Assembly (NCBI GenBank): GCA_037200905.1
Contig: JBBCGN010000004.1
Coordinates: forward strand, 4,038-68,037
Source: a bacterium
GTDB lineage: Bacteria; Patescibacteriota; Minisyncoccia; Phycocordibacterales; UBA9973
Direction: 5' to 3'
DNA: 64,000 nucleotides
Every line of letters starts with the position of its first letter. The first letter of the stretch is position 1. A program made the translations under genes and the position numbers. The notes beneath the pieces were generated by a model. The model saw nothing but the letters and a program-made list of their open reading frames with translations, was not told where the DNA came from and did no database searches. Of this stretch, positions 10,047 through 40,637 are shown piece by piece.

Positions 10047-12269
10047 TTATTCTATCTTGTTGAGCTTATGAGGATTGTGATTTGCACAAGTTTTATTAGA
10101 GCACCTTTCAGGAATAGTTTTTGTGCCTTCCATCATCAATGAGCCGCATTTGTCACAGATATTGCCGGTCGGCTTGGCTTTCATGGCGAACTTGCAGTCG
10201 GGATAGTTCGAGCAGGCATAGAAGAGGCCGAAGCGTCCGCGGCGTTCCATGATCTCGCCCTTCTTGCATTCCGGGCACTTCACGCCGGTCATCTTCTTTG
10301 CTTTTTCGGCTTCGTCTTCCTTTATGAATTTGCATTTCGGATAGCGAGAACATGATATGAACGTGCCGGTGCCGTCGCGGCGTTCGCGTATGACGAGCTT
10401 GCCGCCTTTCTTCTCTCCGCAGAGCGGGCACGGCTCGCCGGTCTCTTCCGGGCCCTTGAGCTCCTGCCCGTCGAGCATGAGCGCGCCGTCGCAGTCGGGA
10501 TAGCGCGAGCAGGAATAGAACTTGCCGCCGCGGGAGAGCTTGATGATCATCTTCGAGCCGCACTTCGGGCATTTGATGTTGTCGGGAGCGTCGCCCAAGT
10601 TCGTGGCCTTTTCCAATTTTTCTTTGGACTTCACGTCTTTGAGGAACGGACCATAGAAATCTTTGAGTGTTTTCTCATATTCGCGCTCGCCACGAGAGAT
10701 CTCGTCGAGCTCGTCTTCCATCTCGGCGGTAAAGTCGTCGGAAATGTATTTCATGAAATGCGTCTCGAGGAAGTCGGACACTACTTCGCCGACATCGGTC
10801 GGGAAAAGCGTCTTGCCTTCTTTTCGCACGTATTCGCGGTCTTCGATGGTGCGCATGATGGATGCGTACGTAGAAGGCCGGCCGATGCCGCGCGATTCGA
10901 GCTCTTTGACGAGGCCAGCTTCGGTATAGCGGCCCGGCGGCTCGGTGAATTTTTCTTCGCTCGAGAGATCGAGCAGTTTCAATTTCTCTCCGGCTTTGAC
11001 TTCCGGCAGTTCCACGTCTTCGCCGCGAGCGCCCGAATCCACTTCGAGCCAGCCCGCAAAGAGCAGCGTGAGCCGTTTGCGGAGAATGCCGGCAGGTCTT
11101 CATGATCTTTGATGACGGCAGAGACTTTCGTCTTCAAGAGCTTGGCATCGGTCATCTGCGAAGACACGGCGCGCTCCCAGATGAGCTGATATAGTTTCTG
11201 CTGTTCTTCGGTGCCGGCATGCATGGCATCGATATGCGTCGGACGGATGGCTTCATGCGCTTCCTGGGCGTTCTTTGATTTTGTCTTATATATGTGCGCT
11301 TCGGCGTATTTCGCGCCGTACTTCTTAGTGACGAATGCCACGATCTGGTCCTGAGCCACTTTAGACAGGTTTGTGCTGTCGGTACGCATGTAGGTGATGT
11401 GTCCGGCTTCGTAGAGCTTCTGGGCGAGCTGCATGGTGCGCGAAGGGGAATAGCCGAGACGCGAGCTCGCTGTCTGCTGCAAAGTGGACGTGGTGAACGG
11501 CGCGCGCGGAGAACGCTTCTGTTCGGATTCCTTCACGCCTTTGACTATCCAGTCGCCCTTCTTCCCGGCTTCGAGAATCTTGTTCACGAGAGCCTCGTCG
11601 CGCGGCTCTTCGTCGCATTCGAGAGCAAGCTTGTCCTTTCGGATAGTCTCGAACTGGCCGAAGAGGCGCCAGAATTTTTCCGGCACGAAAGCCCGGATCT
11701 CGCGCTCGCGTTCCATGATGATGCGCAAAGCCGGAGACTGTACGCGGCCTGCGGATAGGCCGTAGCGCACTTTCTTCCATATCAGTCCCGAGAGGTCGTA
11801 GCCTACGAGGCGGTCGAGCACGCGGCGGGCTTCCTGGGCCCGGCGGAGAGCGGTATCGATGTCCGCGCGGATGCTTCAGGGCTTCCTGCACGGCTTCCTT
11901 GGTGATCTCGTAAAAAGCCACCCGTTTGATGGGCGCTTTTACTTTCTTGTCGGCGTTCAGGATCTCTTCGATGTGCCAGGCTATGGCTTCGCCATCGCGG
12001 TCGGGGTCCGTCGCGAGCACGATGCTCGTGGCCTTGTGCGCAAGTTCGCGCAATTCGCTGACGACTTTTTCTTTGCCCTTCGATATCTCGTAGTGAGGGA
12101 CGAAGCCCGCTTCGATATCGATGGCTGCCTTGTTGGACTTCGGCAGGTCGCGGATATGTCCGACGGATGCGCGCACGATATAGCGGTCTGCTTTGCTTAC
12201 AGAATCGTCATCTAAATATTTTTCTATTGTCTTGGCTTTTGACGGCGATTCCACTATCAATAATTTCAT
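10047..12269 (-). CDS. topA: DNA topoisomerase I with C-terminal zinc ribbons, two frameshifts
   Basis: Toprim MKLLIVESPSKAKTIEKYL...DPDRDGEAIAWH; core LDRLVGYDLSGLIWKK...SAGRVQSPALR; four CxxC..CxxC fingers. Frames join near 11845 and 11075. Confidence 0.9.
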
Positions 12270-12343
12270 CCCGTTAGAAACTTAAAAATTAACCCCTGGT
12301 AAACGATATTCCCCGTCAGTTGCGTTTCTAACGGGATTCATAC
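12270..12343 (-). promoter_or_regulatory. 74-nt conserved topA leader: two alternative helices plus mini-ORF
   Basis: mRNA sense: GUAUGAAU-CCCGUUAG-AAACGCAA-CUGACGGG-30 nt-GUUUCUAACGGG-AUG(topA). Mini-ORF 12341-12282 encodes MNPVRNATDGEYRLPGVNF*. Same element at 13997-14070. Confidence 0.55.
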
Positions 12344-12470
12344 GCCCCTAAGTATTACATGAAATATATTTATTTAGCAAATCACGACGCCGATTTTATT
12401 GACTTTTTATATTAAATATGTTATATTATATAGGTAAAACTTCTTTGCAAAAAACCTAAATAGAATAACG

Positions 12471-13093
12471 ATGAAAAAATGCTATGTACCGACCCTTGCA
12501 TTCGCACTTGCGTGCGGGTTCCTCGCCTGCAAACCGGCTCAAGAGAGTTCGTCTCTGCTGCTGGCCAATGAGCCGAAAACAGACACGGTCCGTCTTACCG
12601 GGGATCTGATAGATCACTACAAGATAACGGAAGAGATGCTCCGGAACGAGCGCGTGTATCTCTTGCTCGAAGACAGCATCGTGATAATGAAGGAGTTCGC
12701 CGAGCGCGGGTCAAGCGTCAGCAGGCGACGGCAAGATAATCCTCAAGGACAACATCCAGACGGAAACGATCGTCTTTCCGAAGGGATCCAAGGGTCACTG
12801 CTTCTACATCGATAACGATGACAAGATGTTCATCACGTTCAAAAAGAAAGGCGAGTACAACCGTGAAAGTTTCTATCTCATTTTCGGCCCCCGACAGGTA
12901 TAGGGAGGACGGCGAGTACGTCTTCCTGGCGAAAAAAGATTCTTCCGGGAAACCGGACCGCCGACACACCTTTTATAAGGTCCAGTACGGCGAAGATTTC
13001 TATCGGATCGTGTACGGCCAGACCAATCACCTGCTTATCAGTAAGCGGACGGTGCTCGGGAACGACAGGCGCATCATCGAAGGCATCAGGTAA
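12471..13093 (+). CDS. Unassigned lipoprotein (about 205 aa), two frameshifts
   Basis: Signal plus lipobox MKKCYVPTLAFALACGFLAC. Reading continues across shifts near 12705 and 12890 to ...RIIEGIR*. TTGACT-17-TATATT promoter lies upstream. Confidence 0.55.
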
Positions 13094-13135
13094 AAATCAT
13101 CATCCGAGTCTCAAAGAGCAATCTTTGAGACTTTT

Positions 13136-13996
13136 TTATTTCAGCCGTAGCTCGCCGAGCTCTTCCTTGATGAGTTCCTTGATCTCCATGACGGAGAGCA
13201 GGGCGTTCGCCGCGGCGATCGGCATCTTGAGGGCCTTGAGGACTTCGTCGCGCGGCATGGGCTCGCGGAGGAGCGCGACGACTTTCTTCTCTTCCGGCGA
13301 CAGATCTTCGAAAAGCCGGGCCTGCTTGTCCTCGCTCTCTTCCGGTTCGAAACCGAGGGCTTCGAGGACATCGGCCGCATCCTGCACGGGCGTCGCTCCT
13401 TGGCGGATGAGCTTGTTGGTGCCGCGCGAGCTCGGCGTGAATATCGAGCCGGGCACCGCCAGCACGTCCTTGTTGTATTCCACGGCCAGGCGGGCGGTGA
13501 TGAGCGTGCCGGATTTTTCTTCCGCCTCTATGACGAGCACGGCTTTCGAGATGCCGGCCATCAGGCGGTTGCGCATAGGAAAGCTCCAGTGCGTGGCTTT
13601 GAAATCGGGCTCGAACTCCGACACGAAGCAGCCGCCGGCGTCGAGCACTTCGTCCATGAGGTGCGCATTTATTTCGGAAAAATGACATCTTTGGAAAGTC
13701 CGGAGCCGGGAAAGACGAGCGTGGTCAGCCCGGCGCGCATGGGCCGCCTTGTGCGCGATGGTATCGATGCCCATGGCGAATCCCGAGACGATGACGATGG
13801 GATAGCCCTTGAGTCCGGCGATGATCTTCTCGCAGGCCTCGCGCCCGTACGAGGTGAACTTCCGCGAGCCGACGACGCACAGGTGCACGAGGTCTTGGCT
13901 CGGCAGGTCGCCGAGCACCCAGAGGGTCTCCGGCGGCTGGGGCAGCTCGAGCAGGGCTTTAGGAAAATCTGCAGCTTGCAGTTTCTCTATTTTCAT
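13136..13996 (-). CDS. dprA: DNA processing protein DprA/Smf
   Basis: VVGSRKFTSYG, SGFAMGIDTIAH, FPMRNRLMAGISKAVLVIEAEEKSGTLITARLA. A paired +1/-1 slip (about 13745 and 13685) garbles roughly 20 codons. Confidence 0.85.
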   Translation of the reverse strand: MKIEKLQAADFPKALLELPQPPETLWVLGDLPSQDLVHLCVVGSRKFTSYGREACEKIIAGLKGYPIVIVSGFAMGIDTIAHKAAHARRADHARLSRLRTFQRCHFSEINAHLMDEVLDAGGCFVSEFEPDFKATHWSFPMRNRLMAGISKAVLVIEAEEKSGTLITARLAVEYNKDVLAVPGSIFTPSSRGTNKLIRQGATPVQDAADVLEALGFEPEESEDKQARLFEDLSPEEKKVVALLREPMPRDEVLKALKMPIAAANALLSVMEIKELIKEELGELRLK

Positions 13997-14070
13997 CCGT
14001 TAGAAGAAGTCCATATGTTAATTATAAGCAATCATCTTCCCGTCAGTCGAACTTCTAACGGGATTCATAC
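13997..14070 (-). promoter_or_regulatory. 74-nt conserved dprA leader, same element as the topA leader
   Basis: mRNA sense: GUAUGAAU-CCCGUUAG-AAGUUCGA-CUGACGGG-32 nt-CUUCUAACGG-AUG(dprA). Mini-ORF 14068-14018 encodes MNPVRSSTDGKMIAYN*. Confidence 0.55.
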
Positions 14071-14124
14071 CCATAGGGTAACGCTATTTTGTAATTATGG
14101 CAATAATACTATACAATATGGATT

Positions 14125-38017: not shown

Positions 38018-38881
38018 ATGAAAACTCTGCGCGAATGCATCAAGGAAGCTGGGGACAAGCATGTAGCTATAGGACATTTTAATATCTCGAATCTCGAAGC
38101 CTTGCATGGCATTTATAACGCCGCACGGGCTCTCGACGTGCCGGTCATCATCGGCCTCTCCGAAGGCGAAGAGAAATTCATGGGTCGCGACGAAGCGGCA
38201 GCGCTCATCAAGATGTATCGCGAGCGCGATATGTACCCGATATTCTTGAATGCTGACCATCATGCCAGTTTCGAATCCGCAAAGGCTTGCATCGACGCCG
38301 GCTTCGACATGGTGATTATTGATGGGGCAAAATTGCCGATGGATGAGAATATCACCATGACCAAGCAAGTGGTGGACTATGCCCACGAAATCACCAAGAA
38401 TACCGGCCGCGATATCATCGTCGAAGCGGAGCTTGGCTATATCGGCTCAGGCTCGGATATCAAAGACAGTATTCCGGAAGGCGCAGGCGTGCTCACAAAG
38501 CCTGAGGATGCCAAGGCGTTTGTCGATGCCACCGGCATCGACATGTTCGCGCCATCAGTCGGTTCGATTCATGGCCTGATCAAGACCGGCAAGCCGCATA
38601 TCGATGCGGAACTCGTGAAAAAGATAAAGGAAACCGTCGGCATCCCGCTCGTCTTGCACGGCGGCTCGGGCCTGCGCGACGAGGATTTCATCAATGCCGT
38701 GAAGGCTGGCATTTCCGTCATCCATATCAATTCCGAGCTCCGTCTGGCATACGAGGAAGCCGTGAAGAAATTCGTAAACGAGAACCCTGAAGAGATAAAT
38801 CCGTCGAAAATCCTGAAGCCTGCCGTCGATGCTATCGAGGCAATCGTTTCTGCACGCTTGAGGGCTTTTCAATCCAATCGC
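38018..38881 (+). CDS. fba: Class II fructose-bisphosphate aldolase (288 codons), no stop before the next domain
   Basis: HVAIGHFNISNLE, LNADHH, LVLHGGSG. ATG lies 7 nt after TAAAAT (38006-38011). Reading runs directly into 38882. Confidence 0.8.
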
Positions 38882-40637
38882 ATGAAAGAAGAAATACTGA
38901 AATTCTGGAAAGGGGATGCGGATGACAGCGAGGAGACGCTCAGGAAATATTCGCATGACGCGAGCATTTTCGACGTGCGGCCGAAGCTCGTACTTTTCCC
39001 GAAAGACGCTGACGATGTGAAGGCCTTGGTTAAATGGGTTTCTGAAAATTGCGCTAGGCAAGACCTAACGCAAAAATATGGAAAACTTTCCATCACCGCC
39101 CGCTGCGCCGGCACCGACATGTCCGGCGGCTCGATCAATGAGTCCATCATCTTAGATTTTTCCAAGTACATGAATCAGCTGGTGAAATTCGAGGGGGAGA
39201 ATATCACCGTCCAGCCGGGCATGTTCTACCGCGATTTCGAGAAGATCACTTTGGAGAGGAATCTGGTCCTGCCGTGCTATACGGCTTCGAAGAATATCAA
39301 TGCCATGGGCGGCATGTACGGGAATAATAGCGCCGGCGAGCGCACGCTGCGCTACGGCAAGACTGAGGACTATGTCATGGAAGCCAAAGTGGTCTTTGCC
39401 GACGGCAATCTCTATACCGTGAAGCCTTTGAACGAGAGCGAACTGCAGGCCAAGATTGCCCAGGGAGATTTCGAGGGAAACGCATACAAGAATATCTACG
39501 AGCTGATACAGAAGAACAAGGGAGATATCGACAAGGCCAAGCCGAACGTGCACAAGAATTCTGCCGGGTATTATATCTGGAACGTCCTTCATACGGACTC
39601 GGAAAATTCTTCCGGCTTAACCCTTCCCGGGAGTACCGGGCGGGACCCACACCAGTCAGAATTTTCCGAGTCCGTATTTCGATTTGAATAAATTGCTCGT
39701 CGGCTCGCAGGGCACGCTCGGCATCGCCACGGAGATCACCTTCCGCTTGGTCAAGCAGCCGGCATTCACAAAGCTCATGGTGGTGTTCCTGCGCGATCTT
39801 ACCATCCTGCCCGGGCTCGTGAACAAGATCTTGAAATACAATCCCCAGACGCTCGAATCCTACGACGACAAGACTTTTTTCCTCGTGCTCAAGTATATCG
39901 TCAGCTTCGCCAAGCTCCTCGGCATCAAGAATCTCTTCAAGCTGATATTCTCTTTCGGTCCGGAAACAGTCATGACGCTCAAGCACGGCTTTCCAAAAAT
40001 AATTCTGCTTGTTGAATTCACCGGCGATACAGAAGAAGAAGCGGAAAAAGGCGCCCGTGACGCCATGGAAGACTTGAAAGCCATCAAGAAGATCGGCGTG
40101 CATATGGCCAAGGACGATTTCGAGGCCACGAAGTATTGGACTATCCGCCGCGAGGCCTTCAATCTCATCCGCTACCACCTGAAGAAGATGAAGTCCGAGC
40201 CGTTCGTGGACGACGTCATCGTCCGCCCGGAGAAACTGCCCGAGTTCTATCCCGAGCTCTACAAGATCCTCAACGAATACGGCAAGGAGATGACTTTCGC
40301 CGTCGGCGGCCACTCTGGCGAGGGGAACATGCATATCTATACGCTGCTCTCGCCGGCGGACCCCGAGCTCGGGCATATCGTGGCGCATGTCTCCGAACAA
40401 GTATATGACCTCGTCATCCGCCTCGGCGGCTCGATCACCGCGGAGCACAACGACGGCATCATCCGCACGCCGTTCCTCGAGAAGATGTACGGGGAAAAGA
40501 TCACCGGCATGTTCGCGCAGGTCAAAAACATCTTCGATCCGAAAAATATCCTCAATCCCGGCAAAAAAGTGCCCGTCCCGGGCGGCATCGGCACTCGGGA
40601 ATACATCGCGACGCATATCACCAAGCCGGAAAAATAA
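38882..40637 (+). CDS. FAD-linked oxidase (PCMH-type FAD-binding domain plus C-terminal oxidase domain), interrupted by an 85-nt insertion
   Basis: FPKDADDVKALVKWV, RCAGTDMSGGSI, LLVGSQGTLGIATEITFRL, GGSITAEHNDG. In frame with fba upstream. The frame is restored by removing 39593-39677. Confidence 0.7.
39591..39677. mobile_element. MITE-like palindromic insertion inside the oxidase gene
   Basis: Perfect inverted termini ATACGGACTCGGAAAATTCT (39591-39610) and AGAATTTTCCGAGTCCGTAT (39658-39677), with an inner CCCGG/CCGGG hairpin. Deleting 85 nt gives NVLHFDLNKLLVGSQGTLG. Confidence 0.6.

Follow-up and report, generated by a model that had tools for sequence, protein, structure and literature searches.

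The topA and dprA genes lie on the minus strand of the 64,000-nt stretch of DNA analysed here (the window), with two small ORFs between them; searches of those two ORFs against NCBIfam and Pfam gave no hit. Directly upstream of each gene is a leader sharing conserved blocks with the other, and the features of both loci are collected in Table 1. The sequence is as the earlier note described it. The shared 18-mer at the 5′ side, GTATGAATCCCGTTAGAA, occurs exactly twice in the 64 kb, at 12326-12343(-) and 14053-14070(-), against a chance expectation of 0.02, and the proximal helix, CCCGTTAG-N8-CTGACGGG, occurs only at these two places. The distal helix of the topA leader is 14 perfect bp (ATCCCGTTAGAAAC / GTTTCTAACGGGAT), longer than the 12 bp previously noted, whilst that of dprA is CCGTTAGAAG / CTTCTAACGG plus one bulged C. 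Both mini-ORFs translate as had been stated. The observation itself is real.

Table 1. Features of the topA and dprA loci in the window.
Feature	Position	Strand	Description and evidence
topA (host gene of copy 1)	10047..12269	-	Intact over 735 aa except for two compensating frameshifts
Right direct repeat, copy 1	12265..12269	-	ATGAA; true start of topA (MKLLIVESPSKAK...); N-terminus identical to TopA of 72 relatives
Element copy 1	12270..12336	-	Short form, 67 nt, TCCCGTTAGAAAC...GTTTCTAACGGG; 14-bp perfect inverted arms; family covariance model R1, 27 bits, E=0.002
Internal box, copy 1	12312..12319	-	CTGACGGG; can pair with the left terminal CCCGTTAG (12328-12335) to form the proximal helix; recurs in the family with strand polarity
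Left direct repeat, copy 1	12337..12341	-	ATGAA; duplicate of the first 5 nt of topA; start of the 19-codon upstream ORF (12341-12282), MNPVRNATDGEYRLPGVNF then stop; lies 10 nt after the -10 box, matching the position of the topA ATG in relatives without the insert
topA promoter (inferred from conservation, not mapped)	12352..12380	-	TTGCTA (12375-12380), 17-nt spacer, TAATAC (12352-12357) with TG upstream; the same promoter, TTTGCAAAAAAA..TTTCGTGTAATACT, is conserved upstream of topA in relatives
dprA (host gene of copy 2)	13136..13996	-	286 aa; Pfam domains DNA_processg_A and DprA_WH
Right direct repeat, copy 2	13992..13996	-	ATGAA; true start of dprA; N-terminus aligns with 32 homologues
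Element copy 2	13997..14063	-	Short form, 67 nt, TCCCGTTAGAAGT...CTTCTTCTAACGG; right end lacks one G; weak R1 match (20.3 bits, E=0.14)
Internal box, copy 2	14039..14046	-	CTGACGGG; partner of CCCGTTAG at 14055-14062
Left direct repeat, copy 2	14064..14068	-	ATGAA; start of the 16-codon upstream ORF (14068-14018), MNPVRSSTDGKMIAYN then stop

One feature had been missed: each 67-nt body is flanked by the direct repeat ATGAA, the second copy of which is the start of the gene. The “mini-ORF” is the duplicated start codon reading into the conserved left arm of the insert. The earlier note placed the upstream ATG at the predicted +1, but for dprA this is probably not so; the ancestral leaderless start, which reads TATAAT-TACAAA-ATG in relatives, reads CATAAT-TACAAA-ATA here and lies 19 nt further upstream. 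When folded, the topA leader pairs end to end at -26.5 kcal/mol (z = -3.5), whereas the dprA leader prefers the proximal hairpin at -16.2 kcal/mol and is not better than shuffled sequences (z = -1.2).

The orthologous genes of relatives were then examined, since the lack of such blocks in their leaders had been put forward in advance as an outcome that would count against a regulatory reading. That is largely what was found. In 52 of 72 relatives the topA ATG lies 7-13 nt after the -10 box, with no leader at all, and 79 of 80 orthologous dprA genes lack the element; family members sit at the topA ATG in 8 relatives and at the dprA ATG in 1. Furthermore, one near-identical pair of genomes, L048 (filled site) and L067 (empty site), have near-identical flanks and differ by exactly 124 bp, made up of the element plus one ATGAA. 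Such presence/absence polymorphism with a precise empty site shows an insertion rather than an evolved regulatory leader. The window's own lineage has no close relative (the next DprA is 74% identical), and so no empty site exists for these two copies themselves.

A metagenome scan with a pattern that did not include the flanks returned at least 120 loci, holding at least 136 elements. In 129 of the 136 (95%) ATG follows directly after a right end reading CGGG, and 120 of the 129 are followed by an ORF of at least 50 aa. The 110 host proteins match 113 Pfam families. The orientation relative to the gene is always the same (106:0). The direct repeat, in which the first nucleotides of the gene (ATGNN) are duplicated on the left, is 5 nt in 78 of the 129 copies, 4 nt in 6 and 6 nt in 6 (70% in total), but 1 nt or less in the other 39; whether a target duplication of fixed length is a property of the family is not settled by these counts. 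At murG, one locus without the repeat (L126) lacks exactly the 19 nt, including ATGAA, that abut the left end in another (L089), and so a secondary deletion explains this repeat-less copy. Nested copies lie inside the right arm of another copy and carry 5-nt repeats, ACCTG or ATCTG, which is a true target duplication at a non-ATG site. One tandem copy was also found. Elements are 64-124 nt long, and the consensus hairpin has 17 paired positions, 7 of them with compensatory changes, and a 4-nt bulge. A scan of viral contigs gave no hit, and a generic scan for palindromes with flanking repeats was swamped by AT-rich noise. No match to Rfam was obtained, with nothing relevant at the gathering score or at E up to 10, and no description of the element or of its placement was found in the literature.

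The interpretation in the earlier note, a translational attenuator or riboregulator of topA and dprA with two exclusive helices and a leader peptide, is only partly supported by these data. A hairpin does abut and partly sequester the start codon, and the two loci do differ by compensatory changes. The competing proximal helix is also not a chance feature: a YGGG box able to pair with the left terminal UCCCGU lies 27-35 nt inside the element in 46 of 98 long family members, compared with 0 of 98 in the mirror-image control and about 6 with shuffled loops. A second box is complementary to the right arm in 51 of 98, against 0 of 98. A leader peptide, however, is not supported. Across the family the upstream ORF runs from 4 to 39 codons, its stop lies 4-110 nt from the ATG of the gene with no conserved position, 3 copies read through, and about 30% of copies have no upstream ATG; it is conserved only where it overlaps the conserved left arm. 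Nor is a leader specific to topA and dprA supported, given the empty orthologous sites and the many other host genes.

The best reading, to which a probability of about 0.8 is given, is that the two leaders are short-form members of a large family of non-autonomous, MITE-like palindromic insertion elements found in Paceibacteria/“Nomurabacteria” (ultra-small CPR bacteria), and not a dedicated regulator of topA and dprA. The analysis shows that each copy was inserted at the first codons of its host gene with duplication of ATGAA; that the old start codon now sits upstream of the hairpin, next to the promoter, with an intact copy of the gene and its own ATG directly after the right end (CGG or CGGG, then ATG); and that the family is mobile or excisable and occupies the same kind of site at more than 100 different genes in a single orientation. 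The rest is inference. Insertion would make a 5-bp staggered cut at ATGRR, and copies without the repeat would have arisen later by deletions starting at the left end of the element. The element would be transcribed as the 5′ end of the mRNA, forming a hairpin whose base pairs with the A and U of the real AUG. How translation survives the insertion was not established here, but three routes are envisaged. Ribosomes could start at the duplicated upstream AUG, melt the hairpin, stop 12 nt (topA) or 21 nt (dprA) before the real AUG and reinitiate; the internal box could pair with the left arm and free the AUG; or the hairpin could be cut off between CGGG and AUG, regenerating a leaderless mRNA.

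Several properties fit this reading less well. No long element bounded by the same termini, and no transposase or autonomous partner, was found in 1.9 Mb of fetched loci; whole genomes were not searched, and so a parent insertion sequence is neither identified nor excluded. Insertion in either orientation, as expected of MITEs, is not observed. About 30% of copies have no repeat, and the dprA copy matches the family model only weakly. The exactness of placement at start codons is also unlike known MITEs: in 939 kb there are 369 ATGRR sites at start codons and 624 in intergenic non-start positions, and yet the copies split 129 to at most 7, an enrichment of at least 30-fold. Further, orthologous copies keep 95% identical arms while their loops fall to 45%, diverging to background, with loop identity tracking synonymous divergence (Spearman 0.67). 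Concerted evolution does not explain the conserved arms, as copies within one contig are not homogenised (arms 0.77 and loops 0.51 identical). The left arm was ascertained by the search pattern, and its conservation is partly due to this, but the result suggests a constraint acting on the arms in place, which a purely selfish element does not predict. An attempt to separate selection on RNA from selection on DNA using wobble pairs and strand stability was too weak to decide, the sense strand being more stable in 75 cases against 46.

Comparison with known systems shows both likenesses and differences. Correia elements (CREE/nemis) of Neisseria and other bacterial MITEs (ERIC, RUP, MITEAba12) are likewise small (about 100-150 bp), non-coding, multi-copy and AT-rich inside, with terminal inverted repeats, a short target duplication and presence/absence polymorphism, and are co-transcribed with neighbouring genes as a long hairpin, which for Correia is cut by RNase III. 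Known MITEs, however, insert in either orientation, at short sequence targets (TA for Correia) and at variable distances from genes, whereas this family abuts the start codon to the nucleotide in 95% of copies, duplicates ATGNN, has one orientation and polar internal boxes, and has no known parent IS. Rickettsia palindromic elements are also palindromic mobile inserts tolerated inside or at the edge of essential genes in reduced genomes, but they are inserted in frame and translated as part of the protein; here the insert precedes an intact ORF and usually contains stop codons. IS200/IS605-derived palindrome-associated elements and REP/RAYT repeats share strand polarity, hairpin-forming ends and a short asymmetric target next to one end, but make no target duplication and are not tied to start codons, and REPs usually lie at the 3′ ends of genes. 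Integron attC sites are similarly imperfect palindromes of 60-140 nt with conserved ends, a variable centre, an extrahelical bulge on one arm and a fixed orientation relative to genes. An attC site was rejected, however, because the core-site order is the reverse on both strands (GTTAGAA...TTCTAAC here, RYYYAAC...GTTRRRY in attC); the hosts are core housekeeping genes scattered in the genome rather than cassette arrays, and the ATGNN duplication is absent from attC. Finally, translational bypass inserts (phage T4 gene 60; the “byps” of Magnusiomyces mitochondria, which derive from mobile palindromic GC clusters) are short structured inserts in an mRNA flanked by identical take-off and landing triplets, and a matched ATG...ATG occurs in about 70% of copies here. 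Bypass occurs during elongation and needs a stop or hungry codon after take-off, while here the repeat is the initiation codon, 30% of copies lack the upstream one, and no stop follows the upstream ATG except in the 6-nt-repeat class (M-x-S-R-stop); ribosome hopping was not assayed and nothing shows it.

Alternatively, the family may be a domesticated RNA module rather than selfish DNA, although this is considered doubtful. In these bacteria, which appear to translate without Shine-Dalgarno pairing and mostly from leaderless mRNAs, the hairpin would be a recognition site for a sequence-specific factor that cuts between CGGG and AUG, a “hairpin punctuation” comparable to tRNA punctuation in mitochondria, or that delivers ribosomes to the AUG. 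Consistent with this are the exact right junction and fixed orientation, the polar internal boxes, the lack of homogenisation within a genome, and the arms, including the ACCU bulge, staying 95% identical in orthologous copies whose loops and third codon positions are near saturation. Many copies also lie between genes of an operon, directly after the upstream stop codon, and an element-bearing contig has a 16S 3′ end reading GGATTAATTCAATT, with no CCUCC; a Shine-Dalgarno mimic in the arms was rejected, as this one available 16S end has no CCUCC to pair with. On the other hand, most genes, and most orthologues of host genes, do without the element, the ATGNN duplications and nested copies are insertion scars, part of the left-arm conservation is due to ascertainment, and no nuclease is known or identified; RNA data were lacking.

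A less likely possibility is that the element moves as single-stranded DNA by a strand-specific HUH-type (IS200/IS605-like or REP/RAYT-like) mechanism, inserting 3′ of YYCAT on the bottom strand, which is 5′ of ATGRR on the coding strand, and is not a DDE-type MITE. The strict polarity, one exact and one variable junction, the roughly 30% of copies inserted between -1 and +1 with no duplication, and the distinct left and right internal hairpin-forming boxes would fit, and the 5-nt asymmetric target consensus ATGRR resembles the penta- and tetranucleotide targets of that family. However, HUH transposition makes no target duplication, and yet 70% of copies have a 4-6-nt duplication matching the host's own second codon and nested copies also have 5-nt repeats; no TnpA or RAYT gene was seen.

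A dedicated attenuator or riboswitch-like leader co-regulating topA and dprA is very unlikely and already largely refuted by the comparative data. Both genes do carry the element in this genome, both alternative helices exist and the upstream ORFs stop shortly before the real AUG, but the element is absent from most orthologous leaders, present at more than 100 unrelated genes and polymorphic between near-identical genomes, the peptide is not conserved, and the dprA fold is not better than shuffles. Least likely is action at the DNA level, as an operator for a shared repressor (competence or SOS control) or a supercoiling-sensitive cruciform at the topA promoter, for although the inverted repeat overlaps the predicted transcription start and topA is supercoiling-regulated in model bacteria, the family occurs at every kind of gene, including operon-internal genes with no promoter, and its strict orientation to the coding strand argues for a strand-specific role. 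A promoter inside the loop reading into the gene was also rejected: -10-like hexamers are equally common on both strands (84 against 82 of 98), reflecting AT-richness rather than a conserved feature, and one chance-level match lies inside the dprA copy.

What is new relative to known MITEs is the start-codon position and the strand polarity. A more far-reaching possibility, tentative at best but not excluded, is that these mobile hairpins are specifically placed at start codons and, once in place, are maintained by selection, either because the element targets the translation start itself, or because its RNA hairpin is recognised by a dedicated factor that regenerates a 5′-terminal AUG or otherwise delivers ribosomes in organisms lacking Shine-Dalgarno pairing; this would be a new link between a selfish element and translation initiation. 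Mobile elements landing on the start codon of essential genes such as topA, ssb, murG, ftsW, mreB, ribosomal protein genes and aminoacyl-tRNA synthetase genes should be lethal, and yet this family does so routinely in genomes of under 1 Mb. An explanation of how expression survives would say something concrete about translation initiation in Paceibacteria, a process that is unstudied, where many genes appear leaderless and at least one element-bearing organism lacks the anti-Shine-Dalgarno sequence. The exact junction and fixed polarity also pose a targeting problem that known transposition mechanisms do not solve. In practice, gene callers will mis-start or split genes at these sites, and the elements also break assemblies, since several copies lie at contig ends.

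When read on the minus strand, the two regions in front of topA and dprA are as the earlier note described them, and its sequence observation is confirmed. The 18-mer GTATGAATCCCGTTAGAA occurs exactly twice in the window, against 0.02 occurrences expected, and the motif CCCGTTAG-N8-CTGACGGG is found only at these two places. The distal helix of the topA copy consists of 14 perfect base pairs and, as RNA, the topA leader folds end to end at -26.5 kcal/mol (z = -3.5); the dprA leader, in contrast, prefers the proximal hairpin and is no better than shuffled sequence (z = -1.2). What had not been seen is that each 67-nt body is bracketed by ATGAA...ATGAA, where the second ATGAA is the beginning of the gene. 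At dprA the ancestral leaderless start seems to be mutated, since it reads CATAATTACAAAATA here against TATAATTACAAAATG in relatives, and a promoter-like match (TCGACT-18 nt-TATAAT) lies inside the loop of the dprA element, 24 nt upstream of the dprA ATG.

DprA identifies the organism as a CPR bacterium of the Paceibacteria/'Nomurabacteria' group, whose nearest relatives are only about 70-74% identical. The dprA loci of 80 species representatives were fetched (these and the metagenome loci below are given L numbers). In most of them topA follows dprA directly, behind a strongly conserved promoter (TTTGCAAAAAAA..TTTCGTGTAATACT). Whether orthologous genes share the leader had been named in the earlier note as a test of its own reading; in 52 of 72 loci the topA ATG lies 7-13 nt after the -10 box, so that there is essentially no leader. 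The window has the same promoter, then ATGAA, then the 67-nt palindrome, then ATGAAATTATTG..., which is the normal topA start; this is the signature of an insertion with a 5-bp duplication. Eight relatives (L007, L017, L028, L041, L046, L048, L051 and L058) carry a member of the same family at exactly this position, and one (L074) carries a member at the dprA start, flanked by ATGGA...ATGGA. Furthermore, L048 and L067 have virtually identical flanks and differ by a clean 124-bp presence or absence, made up of the element plus one ATGAA.

About 20 of 72 relatives have some palindromic insert between the topA -10 box and the ATG (the topA leaders of L002, L014, L016, L036, L045, L047, L052, L056, L079 and L038, with L027 and L051, were recorded in this connection); these include CTAG-rich palindromes and a second element type (CCCATTAGATACT...AGTATCTAACGGGACAAGT) inserted right after TGTAAT, and the topA start region is a general hot spot for small palindromes in this clade. 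Two further repeated, structured elements of about 70-100 nt occur around dprA and elsewhere in relatives, among them upstream of dprA in L010, L012, L015, L061 and L072; one is ..AAGAGTCGTGGGTTCCCTGYCCTCACGGTCTCCGAGGGCGAAGGCTCAGAAAT.. and the other is ..GCATTGCGCAGGCTGRCGAGCCGAGCATARCAAATTTTCAGCAGAAAATTATGTGCGG.., both are flanked by inverted repeats, and neither is in Rfam at the gathering score. In the window topA itself carries two compensating frameshifts, with all segments about 80% identical to a relative's TopA. The deposited gene calls are split in the same way, and this is either an assembly error or a disabled gene. Two small ORFs lie between dprA and topA in the window, in a region of lower G+C content (0.47); the first (114 aa) has a lipoprotein-like signal peptide, the second is 91 aa, and neither has a Pfam or NCBIfam hit.

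The metagenome collection was then scanned with a pattern for the left arm only (TCCCGTTAGAAG plus degenerate positions) and no flank, which gave at least 120 loci; those retrieved hold 136 elements. In 129 of these (95%) an ATG immediately follows ...CGGG, and in 120 of the 129 an ORF of at least 50 codons follows. The 110 non-redundant host proteins hit 113 Pfam families and include FtsW, MurG, MreB, SSB, TopA, RecR, aminoacyl-tRNA synthetases, PGK, RRF, elongation factors, ribosomal proteins and ATP synthase b. The left flank repeats the first 5 nt of the gene in 78 copies, 4 nt in 6, 6 nt in 6, and 1 nt or less in 39; the repeats are ATGAA, ATGGA, ATGAG, ATGTA and others, and in reconstructed empty sites only ATG is invariant, followed by two purines. 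The arm that carries a 4-nt ACCT bulge is next to the gene in 106 elements and away from it in none. The elements measure 115-124 nt in 97 copies, 80-84 nt in 13 and 60-65 nt in 4; the copies in the window belong to the short forms, and short forms with the same internal CTGACGGG-type box occur in front of other genes too. A covariance search of related genomes had also been proposed beforehand, and a model built from 29 long forms was run on the window plus the 80 unbiased relatives' loci (939 kb); it found the family only at topA and dprA starts, plus two small atypical copies, of which that in L042 is intergenic with a TCGA repeat and that in L066 lies near a gene start.

Four nested copies lie inside the right arm of another copy, between ACCTG and CTTC, and carry the 5-nt repeats ACCTG or ATCTG. 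Therefore, a 5-bp target duplication is a property of the mechanism and not of start codons. A tandem pair is present in locus L152. The copies without a repeat are mostly operon-internal; a -10-like box sits upstream of the left ATG in 53 of 89 repeat-bearing copies, but in only 7 of 39 repeat-less copies, and in several of the latter the stop codon of the upstream gene abuts or lies inside the left arm. At murG, locus L089 has ...CAGCAAAAGCAGAAAGAATGAA directly followed by the element, while locus L126 has ...CAG followed by the element and uses the TAG inside its left arm (TCC CGT TAG) as the ftsW stop, so that the element supplies the stop codon of the preceding gene; this is a 19-nt deletion that begins exactly at the left end.

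These data fit a DDE-type insertion followed by end-adjacent deletions, although no autonomous partner was found in the fetched DNA. They do not explain the polarity or the start-codon specificity. In 939 kb there are 369 ATGRR sites at predicted starts, 624 at other intergenic positions and 8086 in coding sequence; loss of intragenic insertions alone would therefore leave most copies at non-start sites, and yet 129 copies are observed at starts against at most 7 elsewhere. Three explanations remain, namely direct targeting of starts, fast loss of neutral intergenic copies in these streamlined genomes, or retention by selection; the present data do not decide between them.

Across 98 distinct long copies the arms are 90-99% conserved and the central 70 nt only about 40-50%. 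For copies at the same gene in different genomes (ssb, murG, ftsW, mreB and others), loop identity follows third-codon-position identity (Spearman 0.67, p = 6e-5), which indicates vertical inheritance. The arms do not follow it; in the 19 pairs with near-saturated synonymous sites, arms are 95% and loops 45% identical. The left arm was ascertained by the search pattern, which inflates this result, but the right arm was not, and copies young enough to keep a pristine left arm by chance should not have scrambled loops. Copies at different genes of one contig are not homogenised, so gene conversion is not the cause.

The interior of the element is also polar. A YGGG box able to pair with the left terminal UCCCGU occurs in 46 of 98 copies, against 0 of 98 in the mirror control, and this is the proximal helix which the earlier note had proposed. 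An AAGCAGG-like box complementary to CCUGCUU of the right arm, including the 'bulge', occurs in 51 of 98 against 0 of 98. The element can therefore fold either as one long hairpin that pairs the A and U of the start codon, or as two local hairpins that leave ...CUAACGGG-AUG single-stranded. The interpretation placed on the two leaders thus holds only in part: the reading as a gene-specific attenuator is not supported, whereas part of the 'switch-like' description is correct at the family level, and what is actually there is more general, and of more interest, than was proposed.

The mini-ORF exists because the duplicated ATG reads into the conserved left arm (M-x-P-V-R-S-R-G...), and beyond the arm nothing is conserved. 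Its length is 4-39 codons; 22 of 101 stop at the UAA 4 nt before the AUG of the gene, most stop 40-110 nt upstream, and 3 read through. In the window the stops lie 12 nt (topA) and 21 nt (dprA) before the real AUG. Termination-reinitiation is therefore plausible for these two copies, but it cannot be the general solution.

How expression survives the insertion is a matter of inference only. The organisms appear to rely on leaderless or Shine-Dalgarno-independent initiation, since promoter-to-ATG distances are short and the 16S rRNA 3' end of an element-bearing CPR organism (L122, metagenome contig Ga0224524_1000059) reads GGATTAATTCAATT instead of GGATCACCUCCUUA (...GTGGATTAATTCAATT where bacteria normally have GGATCACCTCCTTA), with no anti-Shine-Dalgarno CCUCC. 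Expression could be coupled through the upstream ORF, or the alternative fold could free the AUG. Alternatively, the hairpin could be removed endonucleolytically between CGGG and AUG, which would recreate a 5'-terminal AUG; this last route would also explain the exact junction, the polarity and the conserved arms. None of these candidate routes can be tested with sequence alone.

The element satisfies most of the criteria of a bacterial MITE, with terminal inverted repeats, many copies, no coding capacity and polymorphism; a short target duplication is present in most copies, but its length varies between them and about 30% of copies lack it. It departs from what is expected of a MITE in two respects, random orientation and sequence-defined, gene-independent placement, and it is in these that it appears to be new; there is a real, though less likely, chance that it is something more unusual. 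It is not in Rfam, a search of which returned nothing at the two leaders, and full-text literature searches for the arm sequences, for MITEs in CPR/Patescibacteria and for start-codon-associated inverted repeats gave no description of it.

Positions of additional features in the window and in the fetched loci
Sequence	Position	Strand	Feature
Window	10047-12269	-	topA, with two compensating frameshifts
Window	11865-12269	-	topA residues 1-128
Window	near 11866	-	First topA frameshift, in CCGCGCGGAC
Window	11066-11860	-	topA residues 130-394, in another frame
Window	10050-11066	-	topA residues 395-735, back in the first frame
Window	12471-13093	+	Two small ORFs between dprA and topA
Window	14021-14090	-	Apparently mutated ancestral dprA start and promoter-like match
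Window	39591-39677		Perfect palindrome, 20-bp arms ATACGGACTCGGAAAATTCT, 47-nt spacer
Window	38018-39691		ORF separated by the palindrome from the next
Window	39684-40637		ORF separated by the palindrome from the preceding one
L122	1-96		16S rRNA 3' end
L002	4826-4913		Further repeated, structured element
L004	3557-3622		Further repeated, structured element
L004	5910-5978		Further repeated, structured element
L018	3682-3748		Further repeated, structured element
L069	2532-2600		Further repeated, structured element
L089	4064		Recorded with the murG locus of L126/L160

The perfect palindrome listed in the table is unrelated to the family and lies inside the FAD-oxidase reading frame, where it separates two ORFs and changes the frame; it looks like another small insertion element, this time inside a gene.
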